This document shows positions 26,123 through 52,915 of a DNA stretch of 64,000 nucleotides, piece by piece. Position numbers and translations under genes: made by a program. The stretch comes from Acidimicrobiia bacterium. GTDB taxonomy: Bacteria > Actinomycetota > Acidimicrobiia > Spongiisociales > UBA11373. The DNA lies in the NCBI GenBank assembly GCA_033722675.1, contig JAWVYO010000001.1:48371-112370 (forward strand), given 5' to 3'. Every line of letters starts with the position of its first letter. The first letter of the stretch is position 1. The notes under the pieces are model-generated. The model was not told the DNA's origin and did not search any database. It saw nothing but the letters and a program-made list of their open reading frames with translations.

Positions 26123-26154
26123 CCCGTCCTCTCCGGGCCCGCCGGGGCCCGGGC

Positions 26155-34595: not shown

Positions 34596-37295
34596 CTACT
34601 CGTAGGCGATCGCGTCGAGCACGTTCATCGACGCCCCGCGCCGGCCCGGCAGGATGGAGGCGACGACCCCGCCGACTGCGGCGGCGACCACGTACACCAC
34701 GAGACTCGTCACCGGGATGCGCAGCACGAGTCCCGACCCGATGGCCTCCACGACCGCCACGCCGAATCCGATGCCGACGACCACCCCGATGACGGCGCCG
34801 AATCCGGCGATGAGCAAGGCCTCCCAGCGGATCATCCGCCGCACCTGACGCCGGGTCATCCCCACCGCCCGCAGCAGGCCGATCTCCCGTTTGCGCTCCA
34901 TGATCGACAGCGCCATCGTGTTCGTGATCCCCAGCAGCGCGATCACGATCGCCATCGCGAGCAGTCCCGTGATCACGTTCAGGATCGCGTCGACCTGGCC
35001 GCCGATCCGCTCGACGTACTCCTCCTGGTCGTTGAGCTGGACGTTGGGGTATCGGTCGACGACCGCCTCGATCGCCGGTCGCGCCTCGACGGGTTCGAGG
35101 CCCGCCGCCACCTCGATCATGATCATCCGCCCCAGGCGCGTGGTGTAGAACTCCTCGAACGTCGACATGGAGATCATCACGTCGGTGCCGAAGAGCTCGG
35201 CGCCGTAGATGCCCGCCACCTCGAAGTCCTCCACCTGGCCGGTGGGGAACTCCATCCGGAAGGGGTCGCCGGGCGAGAGCCCCCGGTCCTCGGCGAAGTC
35301 GGAGAACAGGAGCACGGTCCGGTCGCCGAGCGCGTCGAACGATCCGCCCTGCATCTCGAGACGGACCATGCGATCGAGGAACTCGTCGACACCGATGAGG
35401 AAGTCCTCGTCGAGGGTCTCGGGGTCGCGCCACAGGCTGAGACGGAACGTCGACGCCGCGCCCACCTCGGGCAGCTCCCGCAGGTCGGCGAGGAGGTCGG
35501 GACTCGTGCCCGTCTGGGTGGGGTCGCCGAAGCCCGACGCCTCAACCTGGAAGTCGGCCAGGACCTCGTTGCCGATCGCTTCGGTGATGCCCGCCTTGGC
35601 CGACGCGGCGAGGATCGCGATGAGGCTGACCAGCGCCACGCCGATCGTGAGCGCCGATGCGGTCGATGCCATCCGCCGCGGCTGGCGCATCGCGTTCTCA
35701 CGCGTGATCCGTCCCACCGCCCGGAACGTCGCCCGGTCGCGCCAGGCCTCGCGCAGGTTGAATGCGGCACCGGCCACGAACACGAGGGCGGCCGCGATCG
35801 GCCCCACCGGACCGGCCCAGAAGAGGACACCGGCGACGACGGCTGCTCCGAGGGCGGGGATCATCAGCCCGTAGGAGACCTCCATGATCCCCCACGACCG
35901 GTCCCTCCCGACGAGGCGGGTGAACGCCCGCGCGAAGAGGGGCGCCACGATCGACACGCCGATGAAGGTGATGGCGGCCCCGGCCCCCGTCAGGGCGAGG
36001 GCGTTCGACGAGCCGCCGAAGAGACCGACGAGGAGCAGGACGGCGCCCACGGTCAGGACCACGAGGCCACCGATGATCCGACCCCGCAGCGACTTCGGCC
36101 CGGAGCCGGCCACGTCGCGCATGGCGGCGACCGGCGGGACGCGCGAGGCCTTGAAGGCCGGCAAGGCGGCGAAGACCACGGTGAAGCCGACGCCCACGAG
36201 CATGGCGACGACGATCGTCCGGGCCCTGACGGTGAGCGGACCATCGGGGAACCCGAAGCCGAGGGCGCCGAACAGCGCCTCGAGGGTGACCGCCAGGCCG
36301 ATGCCGGTCGCGATCCCGAGCAGTGACGCGGCCAGGCCGACGATGAGCGACTCGACGACGACCATCCGGGTGACCTGCCCGCCCGTCGCGCCGACGGCGC
36401 GCAGCATCGCGAGTTCCCGGGTCCGCTGACCCACGATGATCCGGAACGTGTTGAGGATGATGAAGCCGCCGACGAACACGGCGGTCAGCGCGAAGGCGAG
36501 GAGGACGTTGTTGAAGAACCCCACGCCCTCGTCCACCTGCTCCTGGCCCTCGGCGATCTCGGTCTCGCCGGTGATCACCTCGGCGCCCTCGGGGAGGATC
36601 GCCTCGATCGCCGCTGCCACGGTGTCCCGGTCCGCTTCCTCGTCGACGACGATCGAGATCTGGGTGACGGCGTCCGGGAAGCCGAGCACCTCCTGGGCGG
36701 TCTCGAGGTCGAAGGCCGTGATGGTGGCACCGAGGAGGTTGTCGGCGTCCCCGAATCCCACCACGCCCACGATCTCGAAGGTGTCGGTGCCGTTGACGAC
36801 GATCACCTGCACGCGGTCGCCCACCGAGAAGCCGTTGGCCTCCGCCGAGAAGGCATCGACGACGATCTCACCCGGTCCCGACGGAGGCCGGCCGAAGCGG
36901 AGTTCGAGGGGCGACACCTCCTCGGCGCCCTCCACCCAGGAGAAGCCGAAGGTCGGCGGTCCGTTGCCGCCGATCGGTTCGCCGTCGGGTCCGATGAGCT
37001 GGGCGTAGCCCTGGACGAAGGGCACGGCGCTCGCCACGCCCGCCACGCCCTCGACGTCGTCGAGGAGGGTCTCGGGGATCGATCCGACCTCCAGGGCGAA
37101 GTCGAACTCGGTCTCCGCCCGGACGACGAGATCGACCTCCAACTCCTGGCGGAAGAGCGTGTCGAAGGCGGCCTTGAGGCTGTCGGTGAACACGTAGGCG
37201 CCCGACACGAAGGCGACCCCGAGCACGATGGCCAGCGCGGTGAGGGCGAGCCTCCCCTTGTGGGCGAGCACCCCCTTCCACGACAGCTTCAGCAC
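34596..37295 (-). CDS. ABC transporter permease, duplicated FtsX/MacB-type
   Basis: 899 aa, two FtsX 4-TM modules each preceded by a large periplasmic domain. Confidence 0.8.
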   Translation of the reverse strand: MLKLSWKGVLAHKGRLALTALAIVLGVAFVSGAYVFTDSLKAAFDTLFRQELEVDLVVRAETEFDFALEVGSIPETLLDDVEGVAGVASAVPFVQGYAQLIGPDGEPIGGNGPPTFGFSWVEGAEEVSPLELRFGRPPSGPGEIVVDAFSAEANGFSVGDRVQVIVVNGTDTFEIVGVVGFGDADNLLGATITAFDLETAQEVLGFPDAVTQISIVVDEEADRDTVAAAIEAILPEGAEVITGETEIAEGQEQVDEGVGFFNNVLLAFALTAVFVGGFIILNTFRIIVGQRTRELAMLRAVGATGGQVTRMVVVESLIVGLAASLLGIATGIGLAVTLEALFGALGFGFPDGPLTVRARTIVVAMLVGVGFTVVFAALPAFKASRVPPVAAMRDVAGSGPKSLRGRIIGGLVVLTVGAVLLLVGLFGGSSNALALTGAGAAITFIGVSIVAPLFARAFTRLVGRDRSWGIMEVSYGLMIPALGAAVVAGVLFWAGPVGPIAAALVFVAGAAFNLREAWRDRATFRAVGRITRENAMRQPRRMASTASALTIGVALVSLIAILAASAKAGITEAIGNEVLADFQVEASGFGDPTQTGTSPDLLADLRELPEVGAASTFRLSLWRDPETLDEDFLIGVDEFLDRMVRLEMQGGSFDALGDRTVLLFSDFAEDRGLSPGDPFRMEFPTGQVEDFEVAGIYGAELFGTDVMISMSTFEEFYTTRLGRMIMIEVAAGLEPVEARPAIEAVVDRYPNVQLNDQEEYVERIGGQVDAILNVITGLLAMAIVIALLGITNTMALSIMERKREIGLLRAVGMTRRQVRRMIRWEALLIAGFGAVIGVVVGIGFGVAVVEAIGSGLVLRIPVTSLVVYVVAAAVGGVVASILPGRRGASMNVLDAIAYE

Positions 37296-37305
37296 CGGGC
37301 CCTCC

Positions 37306-38037
37306 TCAGCCCCCGAGCGACTTCATGCGCTCGAGGATGCGGTCGACCGTCGGCCCCTCCATCTCGTCGACGCGCCGTCCGTCGGCGAGGAACACGATGC
37401 GATCGGCCTGCGCGGCGGCCACCGGGTCGTGGGTCACCATCACGATGGTCTGGCCGAAGTCGTCGACGGCGCGCCGCATGAAGCGGAGGACCTCGGCGCC
37501 GGAGGTGGAGTCGAGGTTCCCGGTCGGCTCGTCGGCGAACACGATCTCGGGCCGCGACGCCAGGGCCCGCGCCGCGGCCACCCGCTGCTGCTGACCGCCC
37601 GACAGCTCGGAGGGTTTGTGGTTCAACCGGTCGCCGAGACCCATCACGTCGACGACCTGGCGGAACCATGCGTCGTCCACCGACCGCCCGGCGATGTCGA
37701 TGGGGAGCGTGATGTTCTCCGACGCGGTGAGGGTGGGCAGGAGGTTGAAGGCCTGGAAGACGAAACCGACCTTCTCCCGACGCAACAGGGTGAGGGCCTT
37801 CTCGTCGAGATCCGACAGCCGCACCTCGCCGATGTGGACCTCGCCCGAGGTCAGGACGTCGAGCCCCGCCACGCAGTGCAGCAGCGTCGACTTCCCCGAG
37901 CCGGACGGACCCATGATCGCCGTGAACCGGCCGCGAGCGAACCCGGCGGACACGTCGTCGAGGGCGCGCACCTCGGTGAGACCCGAGCCGTACACCTTCG
38001 TCGCATGGGTGACCCGGGCCGCGACCTCACTCGTCAT
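37306..38037 (-). CDS. ABC transporter ATP-binding protein (MacB/LolD-like)
   Basis: [31 protein letters not shown]. Confidence 0.85.
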   Translation of the reverse strand: MTSEVAARVTHATKVYGSGLTEVRALDDVSAGFARGRFTAIMGPSGSGKSTLLHCVAGLDVLTSGEVHIGEVRLSDLDEKALTLLRREKVGFVFQAFNLLPTLTASENITLPIDIAGRSVDDAWFRQVVDVMGLGDRLNHKPSELSGGQQQRVAAARALASRPEIVFADEPTGNLDSTSGAEVLRFMRRAVDDFGQTIVMVTHDPVAAAQADRIVFLADGRRVDEMEGPTVDRILERMKSLGG

Positions 38038-38287
38038 CGTCGGCGCCCTCGCGTCGCTCGACGCGAATGGTGCAGTTCGTCACGACGGCGGCGATGGCCC
38101 CGACGGCCGCCCAGACCGGGAGCAGCACGGCACCCACGACGCCGACCGTCACCGGGATCTCGACCAGGGTCCGCCCCTCCTCGTTGTCGATGACGATCCG
38201 GCGGACGTTGCCCTCGCGGACGAGTTCCTTCAGCTTCCCGAGCAACTCCTCGCCACGTACCTCGAACTCCTCGGACCGTTCGCCCAC
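38027..38287 (-). CDS. DUF4342 domain protein
   Basis: GTG start 6 nt after AGGAGG. The conserved core (EELLGKLKELVREGNVRRIVIDNEEGRTLVEIPVTVGVVGA) matches DUF4342. Overlaps the ATPase start by 11 nt. Confidence 0.6.
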   Translation of the reverse strand: MGERSEEFEVRGEELLGKLKELVREGNVRRIVIDNEEGRTLVEIPVTVGVVGAVLLPVWAAVGAIAAVVTNCTIRVERREGADDDE

Positions 38288-38384
38288 GGTGGACTCCTCC
38301 TGAATGCGGTCTCCGTAGTCCACCCCTCGTGCGATCGCAACGCAAGCCGGGAAGGAGCGCACCTTCTCCGGCGTTCGACGGGAT

Positions 38385-39161
38385 GTGAGCGGCCCGAACC
38401 CCCTCGTCGTGTTCCTGTCCATCCTGCGCGCCCGACGCCTCCGTGCCCCCGACCCCGCGGGCACGGGCCGGTACGAACACGGGGACCTCGCACCGGTGCT
38501 GGCGGCGGTCGCCGACCGGGGTGTCGCCGGCCTGTCCGGCCGCGCCGGCGAGCTCGCCGCCATCGTGGACCGGCGCGCCGCCGTGGACCCCGACACGCTC
38601 GGCCGCGACGAGGCGCTGGCGTTCTGGCTCAACCTCTACAACGCCGGGGCCCTGGACGCCGCACGCCGGGCCTTCGAGACCGGCGAGACCTCGGTCCTCG
38701 GGGTGCCCGGCGCCTTCGACGAGGCATTCGTCGAGGTGGCCGGGGAGTCGCTCACCCTGGATGGGATCGAGCACGGCAAGATCCGCCGGTTCGGCGACCC
38801 CCGCATCCACGGCGCCCTCGTGTGCGGCTCGGTGTCGTGCCCGACGCTGCGGCGCGAGCCCTACGAAGCCGCCCGCCTCGACGCCCAGCTCGACGCCCAG
38901 CTCCGATCCTTCCTCGCCCATGGCGGGGCCGACGACGACCGGGAGCTCGGCGTCCTCCGGCTGTCGCGGGTCTTCCTCTGGTACGGCGCCGACTTCACCC
39001 GACCCCGACGCATGCCGACGCTGCTGCCGACCACGAAACGCCGGCTCCGGGACGCGCTCACCCCGTGGCTGCCCGCCCCGATGCGCGGCTGGGTGGGCGC
39101 GGTGGCCCCGAAGGTCGAGTATCTCCCCTACGACTGGGGCCTCGGCTGCAGCGTCCGTTGA
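38385..39161 (+). CDS. DUF547 domain protein
   Basis: DUF547 signature (FWLNLYNA...CGSVSCP). GTG start. Confidence 0.65.
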   Translation: MSGPNPLVVFLSILRARRLRAPDPAGTGRYEHGDLAPVLAAVADRGVAGLSGRAGELAAIVDRRAAVDPDTLGRDEALAFWLNLYNAGALDAARRAFETGETSVLGVPGAFDEAFVEVAGESLTLDGIEHGKIRRFGDPRIHGALVCGSVSCPTLRREPYEAARLDAQLDAQLRSFLAHGGADDDRELGVLRLSRVFLWYGADFTRPRRMPTLLPTTKRRLRDALTPWLPAPMRGWVGAVAPKVEYLPYDWGLGCSVR

Positions 39162-39162
39162 G

Positions 39163-39513
39163 TCAGTACCGTCGCACGACGTAGTAGCGCCGACCGCCGA
39201 CGATCGCCGAGAGCAGCAGCGCGACGACGAGCAGCAGCCCGAGGGAGAACCCCACGGCATACCCCGAGCCGTCCCGGTCGCTCTCGTAGACGGTGACATC
39301 GTCGGAGAACAGCGACGCCAGGCCGGTGACGGGCGAGATGAACCCGTCCACGAACCCGTCGAGGAACCCCTCCGCCTCGGCCTCGCTCGTCTGTCCGCCG
39401 GAGTCGACGCCCACGTCCACCTCGAGACCGCCGTCCGACTCCTCGGAGCAACCCGCGACGGCCATCACGAGCGCCAGTACGACGATCACGCCGCGCCACG
39501 GTCGCTGGACCAT
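39163..39513 (-). CDS. small hypothetical lipoprotein with C-terminal TM anchor
   Basis: MVQRPWRGVIVVLALVMAVAGCSEE lipobox, acidic middle, C-terminal TM helix. Weakly supported. Confidence 0.4.
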   Translation of the reverse strand: MVQRPWRGVIVVLALVMAVAGCSEESDGGLEVDVGVDSGGQTSEAEAEGFLDGFVDGFISPVTGLASLFSDDVTVYESDRDGSGYAVGFSLGLLLVVALLLSAIVGGRRYYVVRRY

Positions 39514-40194: not shown

Positions 40195-40986
40195 CTATTC
40201 GACGGCCTCTCGAGCCGCGGCGACCCGCTCCTCGGCCAGGGCGATGTAGTCGGGCTCGACCTCGTAGCCGACGTAGTGCCGGCCGGACTCGACCGCGGCG
40301 ACGGCCGTGGACCCCGAGCCCATGAACGGATCGAGGACGAGGTCGCCGGCGAACGTGTAGAGCTCGACGAGACGGCGCGGCAGCGCGACCGGGAAGGGAG
40401 CGGGATGACCGACACGGCGTGCCGACTCCGAGGGGATCGTCCAGACGGACACGGTGGCGTCGAGGAAGTCCTCCTTGGTGATCGTGTCCTCACCGATGCG
40501 GGTGCGGCGGAACGTGCCCTTCGATGCCACGATCACGTACTCGTGGACGTCGCGCAGCGTCGGGTTCTTGGCCGACCGCCACGACCCCCAGGCGCACGAT
40601 CCCCCCGCTCCGGCGGCCTTCTGCCAGACGATCTCGCCGCGGAGGAGGAACCCCAGTCCCTCCAGCATGGCCGCCACCCGGTGGTTCAGGGCGAGGTAGG
40701 GCTTGCGGCCCAGGTTGGCGACGTTCACCGCCACCCGCCCGCCGGGTTCGAGCACCCGGTACGTCTCGGCGAGCACCCGCTCGAGGAGGCCCAGGTACTC
40801 GTCCAGCGACAGGTCGTGGTCGTAGTCCTTGCCGACGTTGTAGGGCGGTGACGTGACCATGAGGGCCACGCAGTCGTCGGGGAGATGAGTCATCGCCTCC
40901 GAGGACGCGCAGAAGATCCGGTCGAGGATCTCGGCGGGCGGCTCGACGGGCTCGCCGACCTGGGCGGAGCGGACGGGCGCCATCAT
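40195..40986 (-). CDS. site-specific DNA methyltransferase, beta-class (N4-cytosine or N6-adenine)
   Basis: Motif IV SPPY near the N-terminus (DCVALMVTSPPYN) and motif I FxGxG near the C-terminus (LDPFMGSGSTAVAA), i.e. beta-class order. Start at MMAPVRS (40986). No restriction endonuclease gene adjacent. Confidence 0.8.
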   Translation of the reverse strand: MMAPVRSAQVGEPVEPPAEILDRIFCASSEAMTHLPDDCVALMVTSPPYNVGKDYDHDLSLDEYLGLLERVLAETYRVLEPGGRVAVNVANLGRKPYLALNHRVAAMLEGLGFLLRGEIVWQKAAGAGGSCAWGSWRSAKNPTLRDVHEYVIVASKGTFRRTRIGEDTITKEDFLDATVSVWTIPSESARRVGHPAPFPVALPRRLVELYTFAGDLVLDPFMGSGSTAVAAVESGRHYVGYEVEPDYIALAEERVAAAREAVE

Positions 40987-41171
40987 CCGCCGTCCATAGA
41001 ACGACGTCGAGTCGTGACTCTCGCGTTTGCCCGCGCCGAAGCTGGCCGTCTCCGTCGAGATGGTGCCCTCCAGGATCCTGGCGGCCACGGTAGCCCGGTT
41101 ATCCACAGGGACGACGGCAATCTCGCGCCGCGGGCGGTGATGGACGCGCGCTGCGTGGCGGCCGGCGGGGA

Positions 41172-41981
41172 TCAGCGGTCGGCGCGGTACGAGCCGAGGT
41201 GGTGGAAGTCGGCGACGGTGGCGAGCGGGGGCTCGAGCACCGCCTCGAGCCCGGCGGGACCCGGCAGGTGCAGGAGGTCGACGAAGAACCGGTACGACCA
41301 CGCCAGCCCGCTCGGACGGGACTCGATGCGGGTGAGGTTCGCGCCTCGCAGGCCGAGCTCGGTGAGCGCGAGGGCGAGCGCACCCGGACGGTGCTGGGTC
41401 TGGAAGGCGACGGAGCTCTTGTCGGCGTCGTCGGGGACGACCGGGTCACCGGGGGCGAGCACGACGAACCGCGTCGTGTTGTGCTCACGGTCCACGACGT
41501 CCTCCATCAGCACCACGAGGCCGTGGGACCGGGCGGCGCCGGGGGGCGCGAGCGCCGCCTCGGCGGGATCCCCGTGGGCCGCCACCTCCCGGACGGCCCC
41601 GGCGGTGTCGTGGGCCGGGACCGGCGCCCAACCGTTCGCGGTGAGCATCGACTCGGCCTGGGCGAGGGCCTCGGGGTGCGAGCGGACGCGCTGGACGTCG
41701 GCGAGTTCGGCGCCCGGTACGCCGACGAGGGCATGGCGGACCTCCACCCGGTGCTCGGCCACGATCGAGGCAGGGGCGTCGACGAGCCGGTCGAGCACCG
41801 GGAGCACCGAGCCGGTCGTCGAGTTCTCGATCGGGAGGACGAGTCGATCGACGGCGCCCCCGGCGAGCGCGGCGAAGGCGCCGGCGAAGGTCGGGAGCCC
41901 GAGGGCCTCGGCGTCGCCGAACAACTCCCCGACGGCGCGATGGCTGTACGACTGCGCCTCTCCCTGGTATCCGACTCGCAT
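41172..41981 (-). CDS. pheA: prephenate dehydratase
   Basis: PDT catalytic domain (ENSTTGSV) and C-terminal ACT domain (ESRPS...) matching the ESRP motif. Start MRVGYQGE at 41981. Confidence 0.8.
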   Translation of the reverse strand: MRVGYQGEAQSYSHRAVGELFGDAEALGLPTFAGAFAALAGGAVDRLVLPIENSTTGSVLPVLDRLVDAPASIVAEHRVEVRHALVGVPGAELADVQRVRSHPEALAQAESMLTANGWAPVPAHDTAGAVREVAAHGDPAEAALAPPGAARSHGLVVLMEDVVDREHNTTRFVVLAPGDPVVPDDADKSSVAFQTQHRPGALALALTELGLRGANLTRIESRPSGLAWSYRFFVDLLHLPGPAGLEAVLEPPLATVADFHHLGSYRADR

Positions 41982-42066
41982 CCGGGCGACGATAGCCCGC
42001 CGGCGGAACCGCCCGCCGGGCACGATGGCCCCTCGGTATCCTCGTCCCACGATCGGAAAGGACCAC

Positions 42067-45000
42067 ATGGGGGACGAGACGCAGGGCTTCGGTCGCAACC
42101 TCTGGCTCGTGGACGAGATGGAGGAGCGCTACCGCACCGACCCGTCGTCGGTCGGCGAGGACTGGCGCCGGTACTTCGAGGGCGAGACGCCCCTCGGCGA
42201 GCCGGCCCGTGGCGCCGGACCCGACCGCGACGACGGTGACCCTGGGGACCGGACGGACCGCCCCGAACCGGCCGACGGTCGGCCGGCGGCGACCGACGGG
42301 GACGACGCACCCGCCAAGCACGACGCCCGTGGCTCCGAACCCTCCACCGAGGACGCGGGACCGGACCTCGGTGAGGACGACGAGCTCACGACCCTGATCG
42401 GCACCCCGGCGGTGATCGCCGAGCGGATGGAGGAGAGTCGCGAGCTGCCGACGGCCACGTCGGTCCGGGCGATCCCCGCCAAGCTCCTCGAGGTCAACCG
42501 CCGCATCCTCAACAACCAGATCAAGCGCCTGCACAAGCCCGGCAAGGTCTCGTTCACCCACATCCTCGGTTGGGCGGTCGTGCGCGCCCTCCAGGAGTTC
42601 CCGGTGATGAACGCCGCGTACGCCTCGGTCGACGGCGACCCCCACATGGTCCGCTACGGCCACGTGAACCTCGGGATCGCCATCGACATGGAGCGCAAGG
42701 ACGGGAGCAGGACACTCCTGGTCCCCAACATCAAGCACGCCGACACCATGGACTTCGCCGGCTTCTGGGAGACCTACGAGGACGTCGTCCAGCGCGTCCG
42801 GTCGGGCTCGATCACTCCGGACGACTTCGCCGGGACCACGGCCACCCTCACGAACCCCGGCACGGTGGGCACGGTGCAGTCGGTGCCCCGCCTCATGCCC
42901 GGCCAGGGCGTGATCGTCGGCGTCGGGGCCATCGGATACCCGCCCGAGTACCAGGCCGCCGATCCCGAGACGCTGTCACGGGTCGGGATCGGACGCACGA
43001 TCACGATGACGTCGACCTATGACCACCGGATCATCCAGGGGGCGTCGAGCGGGCAGTTCCTCCGCCACATCCACGAACTGCTCCTCGGCGAGCACGACTT
43101 CTACGACGAGATCTTCCGGTCGATGTCGATCCCCTACGTGCCCGCCCGATGGGCGAGCGATGCCAACCCGGCCCCCGGGACCAGGGAGGCCGCCGAGAAG
43201 CAGGCCCGGGTGTTCCAGCTGATCAACATGTACCGGGTCCGGGGCCATCTCATCGCCGACCTCGACCCCCTCCGACTCAAGCCGCCCACCATCCACGACG
43301 AGCTCGATCCCCTCACCTACGGCCTCACGATCTGGGACCTCGACCGGGAGTTCGCCACCAACGGCCTCGCCGGCCAGTCGACGATGACGCTGGGACGCAT
43401 CCTCGGGACCCTGCGCGACGCCTACTGCCGGACGATCGGGATCGAGTACATGCACATCCAGGTCACCGAGGAGAAGGCCTGGATCCAGGCCCAGGTGGAG
43501 GGCGTGTCCGACGAGCTCGACGGCGAAGAGAAGCGCCGCCTCCTCGCCAAGCTGAACGAGGCCGAGGCCTTCGAGCGGTTCATCCACACGAAGTACCTGG
43601 GTCACAAGCGATTCAGCCTCGAGGGCTCGGAGTCGATGATCCCCTTCATCGACGAGGTGCTCAACGAGGCCGCCGACGCCGGCATGGAGGACGTGTCGAT
43701 CGGCATGGCCCACCGCGGTCGCCTGAACGTGCTCGCCAACACGATCGGCAAGAGCTACGCCCAGGTCTTTCGGGAGTTCGAAGGTGAACTGGATCCCTCG
43801 AGCACCCACGGCTCTGGCGACGTCAAGTACCACCTCGGCGCCAGGGGCGTGCACAAGTCGCCCGACGGGGCACAGGTGGACATCGAGGTCGCCGCCAATC
43901 CCAGCCACCTCGAGGCGGTGGACCCGGTGCTCGAAGGCATGGTCCGCGCCAAGCAGGATCGCGCCGGGGAGGGGGCGGTCGATCGGATCCTGCCCTTCCT
44001 CGTGCACGGCGACGCCGCGTTTTCGGGCCAGGGCGTGGTGGCGGAGACGCTCAACCTGTCCCAGCTGTGGGGCTACCACACGGGGGGCACGATCCACCTG
44101 GTCGTCAACAACCAGGTGGGGTTCACCACCGATGCGGCCGACGCCCGCTCCTCGTTCTACGCGACGGACATCGCCAAGGCGGTGCAGGCCCCGATCTTCC
44201 ACGTCAACGGCGACGACCCCGAAGCGGTCATCCGAGTGGCCCGGCTCGCCTTCTGGTACCGCCAGCAGTTCCACAAGGACGTGGTCGTGGACCTCATGTG
44301 CTACCGCCGCCTCGGCCACAACGAGGGTGACGACCCCTCGCTCACCCAACCCGCCATGTACCGGGTCATCGACGAGCACCCCTCGGTCCGCGACCTCTAC
44401 CTCGACCGGCTCGTCGCCCGCGACGACCTGACGCGTGACGAGGCCGACGAGATCGCCCGCAGCTTCCGGGCGCTCCTCGACCAGGCCTTCGAGGAGACCC
44501 GCGGGCTGTCGAGGGCCATCCCCGACGCGCCGCCCGAGGAGCTTCCCGCCGAGTCGGCCCCCACCGCCGTCGACGCCGATCGGGTGCAGACCATCGAAGA
44601 GGCCCTGGCGACGATCCCCGAGGGGTTCAACGTCCATCCGAAGCTCACGAAGGTCCTCGAGAATCGCCATGAGCTGTTCCTCGACGGCCAGGTGGACTGG
44701 GCCCTCGCCGAGGCCATCGCCTTCGCGTCCCTCGCCGAGGAGGGCCACGGCGTGCGTCTGGCGGGCGAGGACAGCCGACGCGGCACGTTCAGCCATCGCC
44801 ACGCGGTGCTCGTCGACTACCAGACCGAGGAGGAGTACGCCCCGCTCGAGTCCTTCGAGGACAACCCCGCCCAGGTCCAGCTCGTCGACTCGATGCTGTC
44901 GGAGTTCGCCGCCATGGGCTTCGAGTACGGCTACTCCGTGGTGGCCACCGACACCCTCGTCCTCTGGGAGGCGCAGTTCGGCGACTTCGTGAACGGCGGT

Positions 45001-45708
45001 CAGGTGGTCATCGACCAGTTCATCGCCGCCGGCGAGGACAAGTGGAACCAGCGGAGCGGGCTCGTCCTGCTCCTCCCCCACGGGTTCGAGGGCCAGGGCC
45101 CCGAGCACTCCAGCGCGCGCATCGAGCGGTTCCTGATCCTGTCGGCCGAGGACAACTGGCGGGTGGTGAACCCCTCCACACCGGCGCAGTACTTCCACGC
45201 CCTGCGGCGCCAGATCCACGACCCGGCGTTGAAGCCGCTCGTCGTGTTCACGCCGAAGTCGCTCCTGCGAACACGTGCGACGTTCAGCGACGTCGCCGAC
45301 CTGAGCAGGGGCACGTTCTTCCCGGTCCTCGACGACCCCGATCCTCCCGCCGAGGCCCGGCGGGTGCTCGTCTGTTCGGGCAAGGTGTACTACGACCTGG
45401 CCGCCCACCGGGAGGAGCAGGGAATCGACGACGTGGCGATCCTCCGACTCGAGGAGCTGTTCCCCTTCCCGGCCGACGAGCTCGAACGCCGGCTCACCGC
45501 CTTCGGGGACGCCGAGCTCATGTGGGTCCAGGAGGAGCCGTCGAACATGGGGCCCTGGCGGCACGTCTACTTCTGGCTCACGAGCCGACTGGGCCGGGTC
45601 CCTCGCCTCGCCGGCCGCGACGCCAGCGCCAGTCCCGCCACCGGGAGCCACAAGGTCCACGATCGCGAGCAGGAAGCGATCGTCGAGGCGGCCTTCGCCG
45701 CGGACTGA
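42067..45708 (+). CDS. kgd: multifunctional 2-oxoglutarate metabolism enzyme Kgd (2-oxoglutarate dehydrogenase E1 with N-terminal E2-like acyltransferase segment)
   Basis: 1213 aa. N-terminal E2-like catalytic segment (DHRIIQGASSGQFL) followed by the ThDP-dependent E1 domain. ATG at 42067 preceded by GGAAAGGA. The first 394 codons of the track ORF are antisense of the MTase and pheA genes. Confidence 0.9.
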   Translation: MGDETQGFGRNLWLVDEMEERYRTDPSSVGEDWRRYFEGETPLGEPARGAGPDRDDGDPGDRTDRPEPADGRPAATDGDDAPAKHDARGSEPSTEDAGPDLGEDDELTTLIGTPAVIAERMEESRELPTATSVRAIPAKLLEVNRRILNNQIKRLHKPGKVSFTHILGWAVVRALQEFPVMNAAYASVDGDPHMVRYGHVNLGIAIDMERKDGSRTLLVPNIKHADTMDFAGFWETYEDVVQRVRSGSITPDDFAGTTATLTNPGTVGTVQSVPRLMPGQGVIVGVGAIGYPPEYQAADPETLSRVGIGRTITMTSTYDHRIIQGASSGQFLRHIHELLLGEHDFYDEIFRSMSIPYVPARWASDANPAPGTREAAEKQARVFQLINMYRVRGHLIADLDPLRLKPPTIHDELDPLTYGLTIWDLDREFATNGLAGQSTMTLGRILGTLRDAYCRTIGIEYMHIQVTEEKAWIQAQVEGVSDELDGEEKRRLLAKLNEAEAFERFIHTKYLGHKRFSLEGSESMIPFIDEVLNEAADAGMEDVSIGMAHRGRLNVLANTIGKSYAQVFREFEGELDPSSTHGSGDVKYHLGARGVHKSPDGAQVDIEVAANPSHLEAVDPVLEGMVRAKQDRAGEGAVDRILPFLVHGDAAFSGQGVVAETLNLSQLWGYHTGGTIHLVVNNQVGFTTDAADARSSFYATDIAKAVQAPIFHVNGDDPEAVIRVARLAFWYRQQFHKDVVVDLMCYRRLGHNEGDDPSLTQPAMYRVIDEHPSVRDLYLDRLVARDDLTRDEADEIARSFRALLDQAFEETRGLSRAIPDAPPEELPAESAPTAVDADRVQTIEEALATIPEGFNVHPKLTKVLENRHELFLDGQVDWALAEAIAFASLAEEGHGVRLAGEDSRRGTFSHRHAVLVDYQTEEEYAPLESFEDNPAQVQLVDSMLSEFAAMGFEYGYSVVATDTLVLWEAQFGDFVNGGQVVIDQFIAAGEDKWNQRSGLVLLLPHGFEGQGPEHSSARIERFLILSAEDNWRVVNPSTPAQYFHALRRQIHDPALKPLVVFTPKSLLRTRATFSDVADLSRGTFFPVLDDPDPPAEARRVLVCSGKVYYDLAAHREEQGIDDVAILRLEELFPFPADELERRLTAFGDAELMWVQEEPSNMGPWRHVYFWLTSRLGRVPRLAGRDASASPATGSHKVHDREQEAIVEAAFAAD

Positions 45709-46212
45709 TCAACGGGTCCGGCCCCGGGCCACATCCCACAGCGCCTTCCCCCACGCCGCCATCTCCCGGAGCCACCCCTCGACGACCCACCGGCGCAGGG
45801 ATGCGTCGCCGCGGTCCGACGCGGCGCCCTCGACGTCGAAGCCGACACGGCGGAAGAGGAATCGGGCACGGGGGAGGTGGAAGCGATCGGTGACGATCAA
45901 CAGCCGGTTCCAGCCGTGTTCGGCGGCGATCGGCCGCAGGTTGCGCGCGTGTTCGAGCGTGCTCGTCGAACGGTCCTCCAGGAGGACGGACGCCGGGGGG
46001 ACCCCGGCGGCGACGGCGAGGTCGCGGATCGTCTCGGCCTCCGAACGAGGCCCGTCGCCAATGCCGCCGCAGCCCACGAGGACGGTGATCCGACGCGCCC
46101 GCATCTCGGCCACCGCCCGCTCGACCCGTCGCCGCAGCGACGGTGAGGGGGTCCCGTCGGAGAACACCTGGGCACCGAGGACGACGACGGCGTCTGCGGG
46201 ACGGTGGGCCAT
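45709..46212 (-). CDS. YdcF/ElyC family (DUF218) protein
   Basis: DUF218 core (VVVLGAQVFSDGTPSPSLRRRVERAV...LLIVTDRFH). Start MAHRPADAV at 46212. Confidence 0.7.
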   Translation of the reverse strand: MAHRPADAVVVLGAQVFSDGTPSPSLRRRVERAVAEMRARRITVLVGCGGIGDGPRSEAETIRDLAVAAGVPPASVLLEDRSTSTLEHARNLRPIAAEHGWNRLLIVTDRFHLPRARFLFRRVGFDVEGAASDRGDASLRRWVVEGWLREMAAWGKALWDVARGRTR

Positions 46213-46327: not shown

Positions 46328-46525
46328 ATGACCTGCAGCCGATGCGGCGGCGACGCCGTCGTCAAACGGAACTCCGCCTACTACTGCGGCAAGTGCGCCC
46401 TCGCCCGCGACTGGCACGAGATCATCCAACTCGTGCAGGACGCCCGCGTGGAGACACCGGTCGGCGGAGCGGGCGAGACGCCCGCGGCCGAGTCCGAGGC
46501 CGACCCCTTCCTCGCGCGGGCCTGA
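46328..46525 (+). CDS. small four-Cys zinc-ribbon protein (65 aa)
   Basis: ATG 7 nt after GAGGAGG. MTCSRCGG...YYCGKC gives C3-x2-C6 and C20-x2-C23. Ends 13 nt before the FtsX-type permease. Confidence 0.5.
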   Translation: MTCSRCGGDAVVKRNSAYYCGKCALARDWHEIIQLVQDARVETPVGGAGETPAAESEADPFLARA

Positions 46526-46538
46526 GCCGACCCGGAGG

Positions 46539-49343
46539 GTGCTCGGTAGCATCCTCCCGTTGGCCGATCGATCCGCTCGAACCAGACCTCCTGCCGTCCG
46601 GCGCCTCGCCGGATGGCTCCGATGGCTGGGCGTCCCCTTCGGCGACCTGGCCCTCGCGCTGGCGCTCGTCGGCGCGACCGCCGCCCCCGCCTTCCTCGTA
46701 TCCGCCGCCGACGTGTGGCAGGACGCCGCCGGCGACCGCATCGCCGGCACACTGGCCGACGGTGCCGATCCCGACGCGTCGGGCATCGCGATCACCACGC
46801 TGACCACGTTCACCCCCGCGGCCACCCGGACCGCCGACGACCTCGTCACGGCCCGGCTGCGGGCGATCGACGGTCTCGGCGAGGTCCGCCGGTTCCAGTA
46901 CACGTTCCGCAACGACGTGTTCGCCGACCCACCGCTGCCGCCGGCGGGGGCGCCGGTCCGCCTCTTCGCCGCGGACGGGGCCGTCGACGCCATCGAGATC
47001 GTCGATCGGGCCGACGTCGCCGAGCCCTCGGTGTGGATCTCCACGTGGTTCGCCGAACGGTCGGGGCTTCGTCCGGGTGACGTCGTGTACGTCCCCGCGC
47101 CCCTGGACCCGAACCAGGTCGGCGCCGAGATACCCGGGGCCCGAGGGCCGACCGTCGCCACCACGGTGGCGGGGACGTACGAACCGGTGTGGGACGGGGA
47201 CGCAGCCCCGTACTGGGAGGACGTCCCGCCCGATCTCGTCCCCCGGTTCCTCCGCCCCTTCAACGCCCCGGCCTTCTCGCTCTTCGTGCTGGATCCGGCG
47301 ACGATGGAGGGGCTGGCGGTGAGCGGGGCGACGCGGTGGACGGCCCCTGCCGTCGACGTCCCCCGCGACATCGGCGGACTCCGATCGATGGTCGGCGCCT
47401 ACCGGGCGCTCGAGGTCGCCCTCACCACCGATCCCGACCTCGCCGCCGCGCTGGACGATCTCGCCGCCGGACTCGGCGATCTCCTCGACGACGACCTGCT
47501 CGTTCCCATCCCCGAGACCGGCTTCGACTCCACCCTGCCCTCGACGCTGGCCGAGGCCGAGGCGGCGCTCGTCCAACTCGACCAGCCGCTGGCGTCCGCG
47601 CGCACCGCGGGGGTGGCCGTCGGCCTCGTCATCATGGTCGCGAGCGCCGTGTTCGTGGTGCAGCGCCGACGCTCCGAGTACGTCCTCCTCGCCGGCGAGG
47701 GAGACCGGTGGTGGCGGTTCGCTCCCCGTGCCTTCGCTCAGTTGACACTGCCGGGTGCCCTCGGTACGACCCTCGGCGTGATCGCCGCGGCCGAAGTCGG
47801 CCACCGCGTCGGCCCGGCCACCGGGTTCGACCTCTCGCCCGTCGACGTGGTCGGCACCGCCGGGGTGGTCGCCGCCGGCACGCTCCTCGCCGCCCTGACC
47901 ACGGGCGTGATCGCGCAGGCCACCCTGGACCGCGGCGTGATCGGCGCCCGACCCCACCTCCTCACCTCGGTCGTGTCGCTCCTCTCGCTGGTGGCCGCCG
48001 GCTTCCTCTGGGCGGTCGTCGGCTCCTCGACGTCGACGGGGACCGTCGACGTGAGCGTCGTCGCCTTCCCGCTGGTCGGGCTCGTCGCCGCCGCTTCGAC
48101 GATGGCCTGGGCGATCGGATCGGTGACGCGGCGGAACAGGGAGGCCGGCCGGCGCCTCCCCCTCGTGGCCTGGCTGGCCGTCCGTCGCCTCGGGACCCGC
48201 TCCGACGGCCCCAGGATCGTGGCCGCGGCCGGTGCCGTGGGGATCGGGCTCGTCGTCTTCTCGACCATGCTCGTCGCCTCCCTCGACGAGACCGTCGACG
48301 CCAAGCTGGCCACCGAGGTGGGCGGCGCGAGCAGGGTGTCCGTGCTCACGTCGGACCGCACCACCGTCGAACTGCCGCCCGACTCGACGATCGTCTCGAC
48401 CTCCCGGAGTCGTATCACGGGCCGCGGCGAGGTCGTGACCCTGGTCGCCGTCGACCCCGCGACGCTGCCGGAGGCCGTGTTCTGGCCCGACGCCTTCGGC
48501 GCCGACCTGGGCCGGACCATCGAGCGGCTTGCCACGCCCCTCGACGGGACGCTGCCGGTGGTGGCCGTGGCCTCTCAGCCGACGCCGGACTCCGGCGCCG
48601 TGGGCACCACCCGGACCGTTCCCTTCCAGGTCGTCGATCGGGTCCGCTCGTTCCCGTTGGCGGACGACTTCGGGATCTCGCTCCTCGTCGACGTCGACCG
48701 CCTCGACGCGCTCGAGCGTGCTCGCGTCGCCGACGTGCTCGGGGTGCCACTCGACGATCCCGCAGTGGACGACGCCTTCGTCCCACCGTCGACCCGGGCC
48801 ACCAAGCACGTCGTGTCGATGCTTCCGCTCGACCGGCTCGTCGCGCAGCTCGAGGATCAGGGCCTCGTGGCGCGCGACGGCCTCGACCGCGCCGAACGCG
48901 CCGTCGCCGTCGACGTCCTCGCCCCCGGCTTCGCCTTCGACTACCTGCGCCTGCTCGGGGCCGTCGCCGCCGCCGCCGCCATCGCCGGACTGCTCCTCCA
49001 TCTCGCCGAACGCCGTGACAGCCGGGCGCTGACCGCCGTCATCACCCGGCGAATGGGACTCCGACCGCGCCGGGCGGCGCTCGTCACCACCGTCGAGATC
49101 GGCGCCCTGTCTGCGGTCGCCACGCTCACGGCCGCCGTCACCGCCCCGTTCATCACCGCCCGCCTCCTCCCGCGCTTCGATCCGAATCCTGCGCTCCCGC
49201 CGCAGGTCGCCGTCGGTGTCCCGGGCTGGGAGGTCGTGATCGCGGTGGTCGGCATCATCACGCTGCTGGCGGCGGTCGTGTGGGCGAGCGAGCTGCGCTG
49301 GTCCCGCCTCGATCACGGGGAGGTGCTGCGTGCCATCGACTGA
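46539..49343 (+). CDS. large duplicated FtsX-type ABC permease with two extracytoplasmic domains of roughly 280-330 aa
   Basis: 934 aa. N-terminal TM helix followed by a large soluble domain and a TM bundle, then the same arrangement repeated. The final helix bundle has the FtsX pattern. Overlaps ATPase 1 by 14 nt. Confidence 0.7.
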   Translation: MLGSILPLADRSARTRPPAVRRLAGWLRWLGVPFGDLALALALVGATAAPAFLVSAADVWQDAAGDRIAGTLADGADPDASGIAITTLTTFTPAATRTADDLVTARLRAIDGLGEVRRFQYTFRNDVFADPPLPPAGAPVRLFAADGAVDAIEIVDRADVAEPSVWISTWFAERSGLRPGDVVYVPAPLDPNQVGAEIPGARGPTVATTVAGTYEPVWDGDAAPYWEDVPPDLVPRFLRPFNAPAFSLFVLDPATMEGLAVSGATRWTAPAVDVPRDIGGLRSMVGAYRALEVALTTDPDLAAALDDLAAGLGDLLDDDLLVPIPETGFDSTLPSTLAEAEAALVQLDQPLASARTAGVAVGLVIMVASAVFVVQRRRSEYVLLAGEGDRWWRFAPRAFAQLTLPGALGTTLGVIAAAEVGHRVGPATGFDLSPVDVVGTAGVVAAGTLLAALTTGVIAQATLDRGVIGARPHLLTSVVSLLSLVAAGFLWAVVGSSTSTGTVDVSVVAFPLVGLVAAASTMAWAIGSVTRRNREAGRRLPLVAWLAVRRLGTRSDGPRIVAAAGAVGIGLVVFSTMLVASLDETVDAKLATEVGGASRVSVLTSDRTTVELPPDSTIVSTSRSRITGRGEVVTLVAVDPATLPEAVFWPDAFGADLGRTIERLATPLDGTLPVVAVASQPTPDSGAVGTTRTVPFQVVDRVRSFPLADDFGISLLVDVDRLDALERARVADVLGVPLDDPAVDDAFVPPSTRATKHVVSMLPLDRLVAQLEDQGLVARDGLDRAERAVAVDVLAPGFAFDYLRLLGAVAAAAAIAGLLLHLAERRDSRALTAVITRRMGLRPRRAALVTTVEIGALSAVATLTAAVTAPFITARLLPRFDPNPALPPQVAVGVPGWEVVIAVVGIITLLAAVVWASELRWSRLDHGEVLRAID

Positions 49344-50142
49344 TCTCCTCGTGTCGTGCGAACACCTCGTCAAGGTGTACGACAGCCCCACCGGTCGGGT
49401 CCAGGCGGTCCGGGGCGTGGATCTCGAGCTCCCCCGCGGGGTGAAGGCGGCGGTCGTCGGGCCGTCCGGCAGCGGGAAGTCGTCACTGCTGCGAATGGTG
49501 GCGGGCCTTGACCGACCGACCGCGGGCCTCGTCACCATCGCCGGGACCGACCTGAGCGCCCTCCGTCCGGGCCGGCGCGCGCGGGTCCGCGCCGAACTCC
49601 TCACCCACGTCTACCAGCGGCCCGCGGCGAATCTGCTCGCCCATCTCACCGCGTATCAACAGCTGGACCGCATCGCTCGACCGCGTCGCGATCGGACGGT
49701 CGTCGTCGGCGACGTGCTCGAGCGGCTGGGACTCGGCCATCGCGTCGACCACGTGCCCGCCGCGCTCTCGGGCGGCGAGCAGCAACGGCTGGCCTTCGCC
49801 CGCGCCGCGGTCGCCGACCATCGCCTGGTCATCGCCGACGAACCGACCGCCCAGCTCGATCCCGACAGCGCCGCCGCCGTCCTCGACACGATCGACTACC
49901 TGGCCGAACGAGGGACGACGGTGCTCATCGCCACCCACGACCATCGCGTGCTCGGGCGCCTGGACGAGATCGTCACCCTGCGGGACGGCGCGGTCGCCAG
50001 CATCGTGCGGGGCGGCACCGAACTCGCCGTGATCGACCGCTCGGGCCGCCTCCAGCTGCCGCCCCACGTGCTGGAGCACTTCCCCGAGCGATCGGCCCGC
50101 CTGGACTGGGACGGGGAGAGCCTGTCGGTGGATCCGCCATGA
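49330..50142 (+). CDS. ABC transporter ATP-binding protein 1 (canonical motifs, roughly 40-aa C-terminal extension)
   Basis: GPSGSGKSS, LSGGEQQR, LVIADEPTAQLD, ATHDH. Alternative GTG start at 49351 (VSCEHLVKVY). Confidence 0.85.
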   Translation: MPSTDLLVSCEHLVKVYDSPTGRVQAVRGVDLELPRGVKAAVVGPSGSGKSSLLRMVAGLDRPTAGLVTIAGTDLSALRPGRRARVRAELLTHVYQRPAANLLAHLTAYQQLDRIARPRRDRTVVVGDVLERLGLGHRVDHVPAALSGGEQQRLAFARAAVADHRLVIADEPTAQLDPDSAAAVLDTIDYLAERGTTVLIATHDHRVLGRLDEIVTLRDGAVASIVRGGTELAVIDRSGRLQLPPHVLEHFPERSARLDWDGESLSVDPP

Positions 50143-50759
50143 GCCCCCTCGTCACCCTCTCGGGAGTCGTTCGCGACTATCGGCGCTCCGCCGAGACCGT
50201 CCGGGCGCTCGACGACGTCACGCTGGGTTTGGACGCCGGCACCGTGACGGGGATCGTCGGGCCGTCCGGCTCGGGCAAGACCACGCTCATCAATCTCGTG
50301 GTCGGCTGGGACGAACCGACCGAGGGATCCGTCGAGTGGTCGGTCGGCGACGACTGGCAGGGCCTCGCCGTGGTCCCCCAGGGCCTCGGCCTGCTCCCGG
50401 AGCTGACGCTCGCCGACAACGTCGAGCTCCCGGCGCGCCTCGGCAATCCACAACCCGTCCCGACGGAGACGCTCCTCGAGATGGTCGGCCTCGGCGCCCT
50501 GGCGAGGCGGCTGCCCGACGAGGTGTCGATGGGCGAACGCCAGCGCGCCTCCATCGCCCGGGCGCTGGCTCCCGGCCCGGCAGTGCTCGTCGCCGACGAG
50601 CCGACGAGCCATCAGGACGAGGACAACGTCCGGCGGGTTGCGACGCTCCTCGCCGACTGCGCCGAGGCGGGTGCCGCCGTCCTCGTGGCGACCCACGACG
50701 AACGGGTGCTCGACCGTCTCGACCTCGTGCTCCGACTCGAGGACGGCCGGCTGGTCTAG
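50139..50759 (+). CDS. ABC transporter ATP-binding protein 2 with degenerate signature motif
   Basis: Walker [10 protein letters not shown] and Walker B LVADEPT are intact, but the signature reads VSMGERQR instead of LSGGQ. ATG overlaps the ATPase 1 stop (ATGA). Confidence 0.8.
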
Positions 50760-52915
50760 TCGTCGCCGAGGACCCGATCGGCCAGGAGCATGGACACGTC
50801 CTGCACCTTCACCGACTCACCGGCGCCGATCTCCTTCACGCCGTCGTCCATCATCACGTAGCAGAAGGGGCATCCGGTGGCCACGACGTCGGCGCCGGTG
50901 GCGACCGCCTCCTCCGAGCGTTCGATGTTCACCTTCTTGCCGGTGTGCTCCTCCACCCACATGCGGGCCCCGCCGGCACCGCAGCAGAACGACTTCGTGC
51001 CGTTGCGCGGCATCTCGACGAGGTCTGCGCCCGATGCCTCGACCACCGAGCGGGGAGCGACGAACACGTCGTTGTGGCGGCCCAGGTAGCAGGGGTCGTG
51101 GAACGTCACGCGCTCGTCGGCCGGGCCGTTCTTCGGGGTGATCCGGCCCTCCTCGACGAGATCCATGAGCAGCTGGCTGTGGTGGACGACCTCGTAGTCG
51201 CCGCCGAACTGCGGATACTCGTTCGCCAGGGTGTTGAAGCAGTGGGGGCACTGCGTCACGATCTTGCGGACCCCGACGTCGTTCAGGGTCTCGATGTTCT
51301 GCAGAGCGAGGCCCTGGAAGACGAACTCGTTGCCGGACCGACGGGCCGGGTCGCCCGTGCACAGCTCCATCGGCCCCAGGATGGCGAAGTCGACCCCCGC
51401 CTCGTGGAGGAGCCGGGCGGTGGAGATCGTCACCTTCTGGTTGCGGTCGTCGAAGGACCCGGCACAGCCGACCCAGTAGAGGTACTCGGCGGTCACGCCC
51501 GGCTCGCCGAGCACCTTCACCGGGAAGTCGACCTTGTCGGTCCACGCGGCCCGCTCCTGGTTGTTCATCCCGTAGGGGTTCGAGGAGTTCTCGAGGCTCA
51601 GATAGGTCTGGCCGAGCTGGCTCGGGAAGTCGGACTCCATGAGCGACTTGTACCGGCGCATCTCGAGGATCTTGTCGAGAATGTCGATGTTCACCGGACA
51701 GATGTCGTTGCAGGCCCGGCACGACGTGCACGCCCACAGCTCCTCGGCCGTGACCCGCTCGAACACCGAGTCCGCCGACACCGTGATCGCCGCGTCGACG
51801 CCCACCGGCGGCGAGACGGGCGGCGAGGCCGTCCGGCCGGCCACCTCGCCCAGCTTCAGGACGATCTCACGCGGATCGAGGGGCTTCCCGGTGTGGTTCG
51901 CCGGGCACACCGACGTGCACCGGCCGCAGATCGTGCAGGCGTCGGTGTCGAGGAGGTCCTTCCACGTGAACTCGGAGACGAGGTTGGCGCCGACCGTCTC
52001 GATGTCCTCGGCCTCCATGAGGTTCGGCATCGGACGCATGGCGCCCTTCGGACGGTCCCGCACGGACAGGGCCATGTTCGCCGGCGAGGTGATCATGTGA
52101 CGCAGCTTCGTGGTCGGGAGCACGACGAGGAACGCGACGAACGACACCGCGTGCGCCGCCCACAACGCCCGGTGGGTCTCGACGGCGATCGACTCGGGAA
52201 CGAGATACGAGAGCGGGTAGCCGACGAAGGACCAGACCTCGAAGTCGGGGCGGCCGAAGACGGCGATCCGGGCGGCCTCGACGGCGATGCCGGTGATGCC
52301 GATCGCGGCGAGGATCCCGATCGTCCATGCGTCCTCGGGCCGCGTCTTCGTACGGATCCGCCAGGGGCGGAGTCCCCACCGCCGCAGGGCCGCCCACGCC
52401 AGTCCGACGAGGAAGATCACGGCGAAGGCGTCGAGGACCGCCGAGTAGCCCTGGTAGAAGCCTCCCTCGAGGAACTTCAGGTTGTTGGGGAGGAGGTGGT
52501 CGATCTCGAGCGTCACGGTGCCGGCGAACAGCACGAGGAAGCCCGTGTAGATCATCGTGTGCATGAGGCCGGCCGATCGATCCTCGGCGACGGTCCGCAT
52601 CGAGACGCCCCGCCAGAACTGGTACAGCCGGTCGACCCACCGGCCGGTTCGCCGGTCGGGAGCGCCCCGCTCCCAGTTCTTCGCCCGCAGCGCGAAGAAG
52701 TAGGCGGTGACCCCCACGCCCCCGGCGACGCCGAAGTAGAAGATCGACACGAGCGCCGGCGGCACGTTCGAGAAGATCGCCCGGCCGACCGCGGGGTGGG
52801 CCTCGTCGGGGACGGTCCCGAGCCACCAGAGGAACAGCACCGAGATCGGGGCGATCACGACGAGGGCGAAGAGCAGTCCCGAGGCCGTGATCCGTCGTCC
52901 CCCGTCGCCCTCCAT
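50756..52915 (-). CDS. membrane-anchored (Fe-S)-binding reductase (NarI-like TM domain + 2x[4Fe-4S] ferredoxin + two CCG domains; Rv0338c/HdrD-like)
   Basis: N-terminal five-TM domain. CxxCxxCxxxCP motifs ([12 protein letters not shown]; [12 protein letters not shown]). CCG motifs (CCGAGG; CPFC). Start MEGDGGRR at 52915. Confidence 0.8.

Follow-up and report, generated by a model that had tools for sequence, protein, structure and literature searches.

A 64,000-nucleotide stretch of contig JAWVYO010000001.1 from an Acidimicrobiia bacterium (GCA_033722675.1, positions 48,371 to 112,370; hereafter the window) carries a gene for a fused permease followed directly by two different genes for ATP-binding cassette (ABC) ATPases, ATPase 1 (A1) and ATPase 2 (A2). 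We consider it likely that the three genes form a self-contained module encoding a type VII mechanotransmission or extractor machine of the YbbP type, in which an A1:A2 motor would use ATP asymmetrically.

The permease (934 amino acids (aa); 46539-49343, + strand), A1 (270 aa; 49330-50142, +) and A2 (206 aa; 50139-50759, +) lie in a region with a GC content of ~0.73, downstream of a gene for a 65-aa zinc-ribbon protein (46328-46525, +). An earlier model's reading of the DNA without database searches (the sequence-only reading) had picked out these four open reading frames (ORFs), and all are present with the motifs it described. The permease stop overlaps the A1 start by 14 nucleotides (nt), and the A1 stop overlaps the A2 ATG by 4 nt (ATGA), consistent with translationally coupled subunits of a single complex. 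The NCBI annotation gives a permease of 927 aa with a start further downstream. A promoter/terminator scan yielded no promoter-like site, and a single terminator-like site (51419-51434) outside the module.

Hydropathy and a structure model both indicate 10 transmembrane (TM) helices in the permease, in the order TM1-ECD1-TM2-4, TM5-6 and TM7-ECD2-TM8-10. The first extracytoplasmic domain (ECD1, residues ~56-355; 46704-47603, +) is inserted between TM1 and TM2 and has ~300 aa, and the second (ECD2, residues ~579-800; 48273-48938, +) lies between TM7 and TM8 and has ~220 aa; the sequence-only reading, which had put each at ~300 aa, was right for ECD1 and too high for ECD2. A GVWIS...GD motif is kept in ECD1 across the family, and an AIDPxTF...W motif is conserved in ECD2. 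The whole permease gave no match to Pfam or NCBIfam at E<0.01, ECD1 matched nothing in Pfam even at E<=10, and ECD2 was likewise without a Pfam match. The Pfam FtsX family (PF02687) was recovered below threshold when TM2-4 and TM8-10 were searched in isolation (E 0.0066 and 0.00075; 16.9 and 20.0 bits against a cut-off of 25.5), so that the 934-aa protein stays under the Pfam gathering score for FtsX; PF02687 is carried by the distant relatives P0010-P0013.

An AlphaFold2 model of the permease, built from an alignment of 93 sequences, reached a predicted local distance difference test (pLDDT) score of 91.5 and a predicted template modelling (pTM) score of 0.87, an earlier 10-sequence alignment having given a pLDDT of 70. 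The best Foldseek match of this model in the PDB was E. coli YbbP (9ge6_A; E 4.7e-16 over ~988 columns), and further matches included BceB, LolE, LolC, MacB, FtsX, the S. pneumoniae Spr0694-0695 homologue (5xu1), HrtB and YtrF. The model also matched the isolated periplasmic domains of LolE, LolC, MacB and YknZ (5udf, 5naa, 3ftj and 5f9q), in alignments not assigned to ECD1 or ECD2. Judged by the model, the extracytoplasmic domains appear to have the MacB/LolCE-type periplasmic core fold, and the earlier view that they belong to no recognisable family holds for Pfam and NCBIfam searches but probably not at the level of fold. As in type VII transporters, there is a 4-TM FtsX-type bundle with long stalk helices, and a large extracytoplasmic domain separates TM1 from TM2; in combining 10 TM helices, a TM5-6 linker and a pair of extracytoplasmic domains in one chain, the protein has the architecture of YbbAP. 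The modelled protein is accordingly described here as a predicted fused type VII permease of the YbbP type, with paired FtsX bundles, a TM5-6 linker and two extracytoplasmic domains that are probably MacB-like. Topology and fold thereby bear out the proposal of one covalently duplicated FtsX-type permease with two TM modules. Comparison of its N-terminal and C-terminal halves by BLAST revealed no significant internal repeat, so the duplication is seen solely in topology and fold.

The permease belongs to a large family. An exhaustive search with a profile of ten homologues, clustered at 50% identity, gave 958 clusters at E<1e-30, rising to 1826 at E<1e-10; almost all are full-length proteins (~880-920 aa). 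Where names are given, the members are assigned to Acidimicrobiia or Ilumatobacter, and the proteins are called 'hypothetical' or 'FtsX-like permease family protein'. For both ATPases the best NCBIfam matches were LolD, MacB and FtsE, with LolD first in each case and all under the equivalog cut-offs, and PDB sequence searches agree. The nucleotide-binding domains (NBDs) are thus of the LolD/MacB/FtsE subfamily, as in the type VII class.

Neighbourhoods of permease homologues were compared and searched by tblastn to follow the inheritance of the three genes; a contig scan with one narrow peptide pattern returned 8 loci and understates the distribution of the family. The order permease, A1, A2 is identical in every close-family locus (L001/L002/L014, L003, L004-L006 and L008-L013), and the permease occurs with both ATPase genes, overlapping or adjacent, in ~15 loci with unrelated flanks. 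These flanks vary by lineage and include a histidine kinase with a K-channel fragment, an aminotransferase, and an inositol-phosphatase-family gene with SBP_bac_5; the histidine kinase is found near the module in L001 and L014 only. Two ATPase genes also stand beside distant relatives of the permease, upstream of it in L007 and downstream in the P0011 locus. In L022 (1218-8128), one A1-like and one A2-like ATPase gene come after a tandem pair of fused permease paralogues (928 and 878 aa), an arrangement that may represent an intermediate state of the family; in the very distant L021 no ATPase adjoins the permease.

Two loci are irregular. L015 (5001-6215), from an Ilumatobacteraceae metagenome-assembled genome (MAG), is a decayed remnant in which the permease match covers residues 27-181 only and an ATPase remnant has a broken Walker A (GPSGSARR), while the upstream synteny (SBP_bac_5 and the inositol-phosphatase-family gene) is intact. 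In L004 (7699-8490), the gene caller broke A1 into two pieces (104 and 89 aa), and its tblastn alignment lacks Walker B and the signature; the cause is either a frameshift or a fault of assembly, and A1 is intact in L005 and L006, sister contigs of L004 from the same sample.

A1 orthologues are 59-64% identical in all related loci, and A1 and A2 share ~35% identity with each other. In a neighbour-joining tree rooted on the ATPase of a classical type VII system elsewhere in the window (described below), all A1 sequences separate from all A2 sequences, and the internal branching of the two clades is congruent, indicating that the pairing dates from one old duplication. The linkage in ~15 loci with different flanks and the congruent clades together support the view of the sequence-only reading that the two ATPases belong with each other and with the permease, and not to different transporters. 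It is accordingly very improbable that A1 and A2 serve different transporters, or that they alternate as homodimers on one permease, for instance in a condition-dependent swap. Nothing speaks directly for such an arrangement, although the two tandem permeases of L022 make one ATPase per permease formally possible there; against it, in ~14 loci a single permease accompanies both ATPases with no second permease nearby, and a homodimer of A2 would hold two non-canonical ATP sites.

The two ATPases differ in the motifs that complete an ATP site. In A1, the Walker A (GPSGSGKS), Q-loop, signature (LSGGE, residues 146-150; 49765-49779, +), Walker B (DEPT), D-loop (xLD) and H-loop are all canonical, and every intact orthologue keeps the whole set, with [L/M]SGGE as signature and xLD as D-loop. 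A2 has intact Walker A, Q-loop, Walker B, Glu154 and H-loop, together with a non-canonical signature and D-loop: the signature is VSMGE (residues 129-133; 50523-50537, +), in which the first Gly is replaced, and the D-loop is SHQD (residues 157-160; 50607-50618, +), where xxLD is canonical. In addition, 11-12 aa are deleted before the Q-loop. In an alignment of A2 with M. tuberculosis FtsE, SMGE falls opposite SGGE and HQD opposite NLD. The contrast between LSGGE in ATPase 1 and VSMGE with intact Walker A and B in ATPase 2 had been seen in the sequence-only reading, which proposed an alignment of A2 orthologues as a check. The altered signature proved to be conserved: it reads x-S-[L/M/V]-G-E in all loci compared, and the 120 nearest homologues in a search of 5.8 billion proteins have SLGE (100), SMGE (9), SVGE (5) or other forms (6), with SGGE in none. 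The D-loop is HQD in 118 of the same 120. The A2-like ATPase of L022 combines an HQD D-loop with a canonical VSGGE signature, and the D-loop change in A2 seems, from these motifs, to be the older of the two.

In ABC dimers, the D-loop of the NBD that donates the signature reaches into the same ATP site. Both deviations of A2 would consequently fall, in a head-to-tail dimer, on the single site that contains the Walker A of A1. The composite site formed by A1 Walker A/B and the A2 signature would be non-canonical, and the one formed by A2 Walker A/B and the A1 LSGGE would be consensus. The hallmark of degenerate sites in ABC transporters is a partner NBD that has lost the catalytic Glu of Walker B, the H-loop His, or both (PMC7544095). 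A2 shares with such systems a non-canonical signature in one NBD, but both ATPases retain the catalytic Glu and the H-loop His (D170-E171 and ATHD in A1, D153-E154 and ATHD in A2). On its motifs, the A1:A2 site is non-canonical and not classically degenerate; the forecast of one consensus and one degenerate site was sound as regards one non-canonical signature, and 'degenerate' was too strong a word.

Several observations weigh against a heterodimeric motor with asymmetric ATP use. The Walker A Lys, catalytic Glu (A1 E171, A2 E154), Q-loop and H-loop His are kept in both proteins, and in the A2 signature the Ser and second Gly are likewise unchanged; with all catalytic residues in place, both sites may be fully active. 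The canonical signature of the A2-like protein in L022 indicates that the two-ATPase architecture does not depend on the signature change. Heterodimer formation is most likely, and its entire basis is gene linkage and the paralogue clades, the tree of which carries no support values. No conserved partner gene (adaptor, hydrolase or lipoprotein) was found near the module among the loci compared. Finally, the sequence-only reading had said that its case would weaken if the periplasmic domains matched a well-characterised MacB-like substrate domain of known function, and a MacB-like periplasmic core fold is what the permease model appears to display.

One alternative is a heterodimer without functional asymmetry, in which A1 and A2 diverged only to fit the non-identical halves of the permease, both sites hydrolyse ATP normally, and the altered signature and HQD are tolerated or neutral. 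We regard this alternative as less probable, though deserving appreciable weight. In its favour are the catalytic and signature residues just listed, the absence in A1 and A2 of the Glu loss typical of degenerate sites, and the VSGGE of L022. It accounts poorly for a first Gly that is replaced in 120/120 A2 homologues and restored in none of them, for the company of this change with an HQD D-loop (118/120) that faces the same composite site, and for the fact that neither change ever occurs in A1; the first-Gly position is, moreover, also part of the degenerate-site signature of ABCB11. As the deviations are strictly conserved, occur in a single paralogue and meet at the same site, we consider it somewhat more probable than not that the two ATP sites differ in function.

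We hypothesize that the motor is an obligate heterodimer that pairs, 1:1, two NBD paralogues of ancient divergence, each of which would dock on the coupling helix of one permease half. The consensus site would drive the power stroke, and the non-canonical site would bind ATP and either hydrolyse it more slowly or tune dimer closure, so that asymmetric ATP use would be matched to a structurally asymmetric fused permease. When ATP closes the NBDs, the stalk helices would pass the movement on to both extracytoplasmic domains. These might extract or expel an envelope molecule, hydrophobic or amphipathic in nature, from the membrane's outer face; this last role is suggested by analogy with YbbAP, LolCDE and MacB. 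We infer in the same way the 1:1:1 stoichiometry, the pairing of each NBD with a permease half, the reduced activity of the non-canonical site and the class of substrate, whereas the gene content, the state of the motifs, their conservation and the joint inheritance of the three genes are observed directly, as is the match of the permease fold. The coupling-helix consensus differs between the halves (RRRxExRLLxAxG after TM2, ARxRxR...RRMGL after TM8), which would fit half-specific docking of the NBDs.

A1 carries a C-terminal extension of ~45 aa (50002-50139, +; VIDxSGRLQLPP...F...RA.L) that neither A2 nor the classical type VII ATPases have. It is present in L001, L003, L005, L006, L008-L013 and the distant L022, and missing in L007. 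The extension gave no Pfam or PDB profile match. To the eye it is similar to the AbrB/MraZ motif D-x-x-G-R-x-x-x-P, but its assignment to an AbrB/SpoVT/MraZ-type domain was considered and is unsupported, hhalign aligning that motif at just 5-13% probability. The extension might add a regulatory input to the motor.

The zinc-ribbon protein upstream of the permease contains four Cys (C3-x2-C6...C20-x2-C23), and GAGGAGG stands 5 bases before its ATG. The sequence-only reading had suggested that it might be a regulator or accessory subunit of the transporter, and its gene does share the strand of the permease ORF, which follows after 13 bp, and has a strong ribosome-binding site; co-transcription with the permease is possible in this genome. 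The same adjacency recurs in a close relative, L020, as DUF218(-), zinc-ribbon(+) and a permease 66% identical to that of the window, the sole other case found. However, tblastn detected no zinc-ribbon homologue in 13 other loci of the transporter family. The protein has 14 homologues (62-83% identity), and the conserved neighbours of its gene are a DUF218 gene and a gene for a ~718-aa Fe-S oxidoreductase. Orthologues at 70-81% identity sit with these two genes in L016-L019, which have no type VII module. Between the zinc-ribbon and Fe-S genes of L016 there are ~155 bp, where the window has the 4.2-kb ABC module; the zinc-ribbon, Fe-S and DUF218 orthologues of that locus are 81%, 83% and 65% identical to those of the window. 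L018 and L019 have the Fe-S, zinc-ribbon and DUF218 genes without ABC genes. Because zinc ribbon and transporter are each found without the other, their adjacency reflects local synteny and is not evidence for a shared complex. A role for the zinc ribbon as a transporter component was rejected on these comparative grounds, and we regard an accessory or regulatory subunit as improbable. The function of the protein may instead be linked to that of DUF218 or of the Fe-S oxidoreductase.

In the window, the DUF218 gene (45709-46212, -; PF02698, E 1.3e-27) and the ~718-aa membrane Fe-S oxidoreductase gene (50759-52912, -; NarI-like TM, 4Fe-4S and CCG domains) flank the zinc ribbon and the ABC module. 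DUF218, zinc-ribbon and Fe-S oxidoreductase genes form a backbone that recurs in varying orientations in related Acidimicrobiia (the window, L016, L018, L019 and L020). The ABC system inserted at this backbone varies: the window and L020 have the type VII module there, whereas L016 has a sugar-type importer. Next to the backbone, a 1607-aa ORF (40885-45708, +) encodes a Kgd/OdhA-type fused 2-oxoglutarate decarboxylase/E2, the stop of which abuts the convergent DUF218 gene; its NCBIfam match begins at residue 396, and the ORF taken from the first start is probably over-extended. Further away (22787-28730, -), a 1190-aa ORF joins B12-binding, MeaB GTPase and methylmalonyl-CoA mutase domains in an IcmF-like fusion, and beside it are encoded a BPD_transp_1 permease and an ABC importer ATPase that carries a TOBE domain.

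A second type VII system, YbbAP-like and of the classical kind, is encoded ~9 kb from the module (34596-39299, -). It consists of an 899-aa permease (34596-37295, -) with strong matches to two copies each of Pfam FtsX and MacB_PCD, a 243-aa ATPase (37306-38037, -) with canonical LSGGQ and GNLD, and a 421-aa protein (38034-39299, -) without a Pfam match. BLAST detected no similarity between the 899-aa and 934-aa permeases.

The combination of a fused permease and two periplasmic domains has been described for YbbP (PMC5985334; PMC12646458), and fused permeases (YbbP, BceB), heteromeric permeases (LolC/E) and asymmetry of the transmembrane parts (LolCDE, BceAB, YbbAP) are all known already. Reviews and structure papers describe the NBDs of the type VII class (MacB, LolCDE, FtsEX, BceAB, YbbAP, HrtBA) as a homodimer of one ATPase, and a literature search of incomplete coverage found no type VII/FtsX transporter with two different NBDs. 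The new element appears to be a heterodimeric motor with a conserved altered site, a variant that appears undescribed for the class; the suggestion of an undescribed asymmetric variant is therefore upheld for the pair of NBDs, but not for the fused permease or its asymmetry. Whether the module is the founding example of a large Acidimicrobiia type VII family (~1,000 clusters at 50% identity) with an obligate heterodimeric motor, one consensus site and one non-canonical site, is a more tentative matter, which we place somewhat short of an even chance.

If true, such a family would provide a natural 'one good site' MacB/YbbP, and could show how many ATP hydrolysis events are needed per mechanotransmission stroke and how NBD asymmetry matches a fused asymmetric permease. 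The number of ATPs per cycle in the type VII class is still debated, and PMC8062640 calls its determination essential. The family would offer a ready-made asymmetric system in which distinct NBDs can be mutated separately and one site has conserved deviations. Its practical value is limited for now; the hosts recovered are MAGs.

Among known systems, YbbAP(-TesA) of E. coli (PDB 9GE6/9GE7/9GE8; PMC12646458) is the closest, with the same fused 10-TM permease, pseudo-symmetry, two periplasmic domains, TM5-6 linker and separate NBDs. YbbP is the best structural match of the 934-aa permease at a sequence identity of only ~13%. The YbbAP complex contains 2 YbbA to 1 YbbP and has coupling helices between TM2-3 and TM8-9 (PMC12646458). 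Its motor is thus two copies of one ATPase, whereas two distinct co-inherited ATPase genes are present here. Also in contrast to YbbAP, the 934-aa permease misses the Pfam FtsX and MacB_PCD thresholds and has no TesA-like gene nearby; the two ATPases are its only conserved neighbours, and a TesA-like hydrolase partner encoded elsewhere is possible. The host is an actinobacterium (Acidimicrobiia) and not Gram-negative, and is presumably bounded by a single membrane.

BceAB of B. subtilis (PDB 7TCG) shares a fused 10-TM, FtsX-duplicated permease and an inherently asymmetric complex, and BceB is a strong fold match. However, BceB has a single extracellular domain (TM7-TM8) and works with a BceA homodimer, whereas the present permease has two extracytoplasmic domains and two different NBDs; BceRS-like two-component genes are not conserved beside the module among the loci compared. 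LolCDE is of the same type VII class with asymmetric transmembrane parts, and its Porter and Sabre domains match the permease model (5udf, 5naa). Its asymmetry comes from two separate permeases (LolC and LolE) with a LolD homodimer, whereas here the halves are fused and the NBDs differ.

In other ABC classes, pairs of unlike NBDs are common, as are non-canonical sites. Heterodimeric type IV exporters (TM287/288, TmrAB, BmrCD, ABCB11, Rv1273c/72c) likewise have two NBDs with one non-canonical composite site, and in ABCB11 the signature of that site is altered at the same first Gly as in A2. These exporters have an unrelated TM fold, and their partner NBD loses the catalytic Glu and/or the H-loop His, both of which are kept here. 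If the proposed A1:A2 motor is correct, NBD heterodimerisation with a non-canonical site would reach beyond type IV exporters and importers to the mechanotransmission machines of the type VII class.

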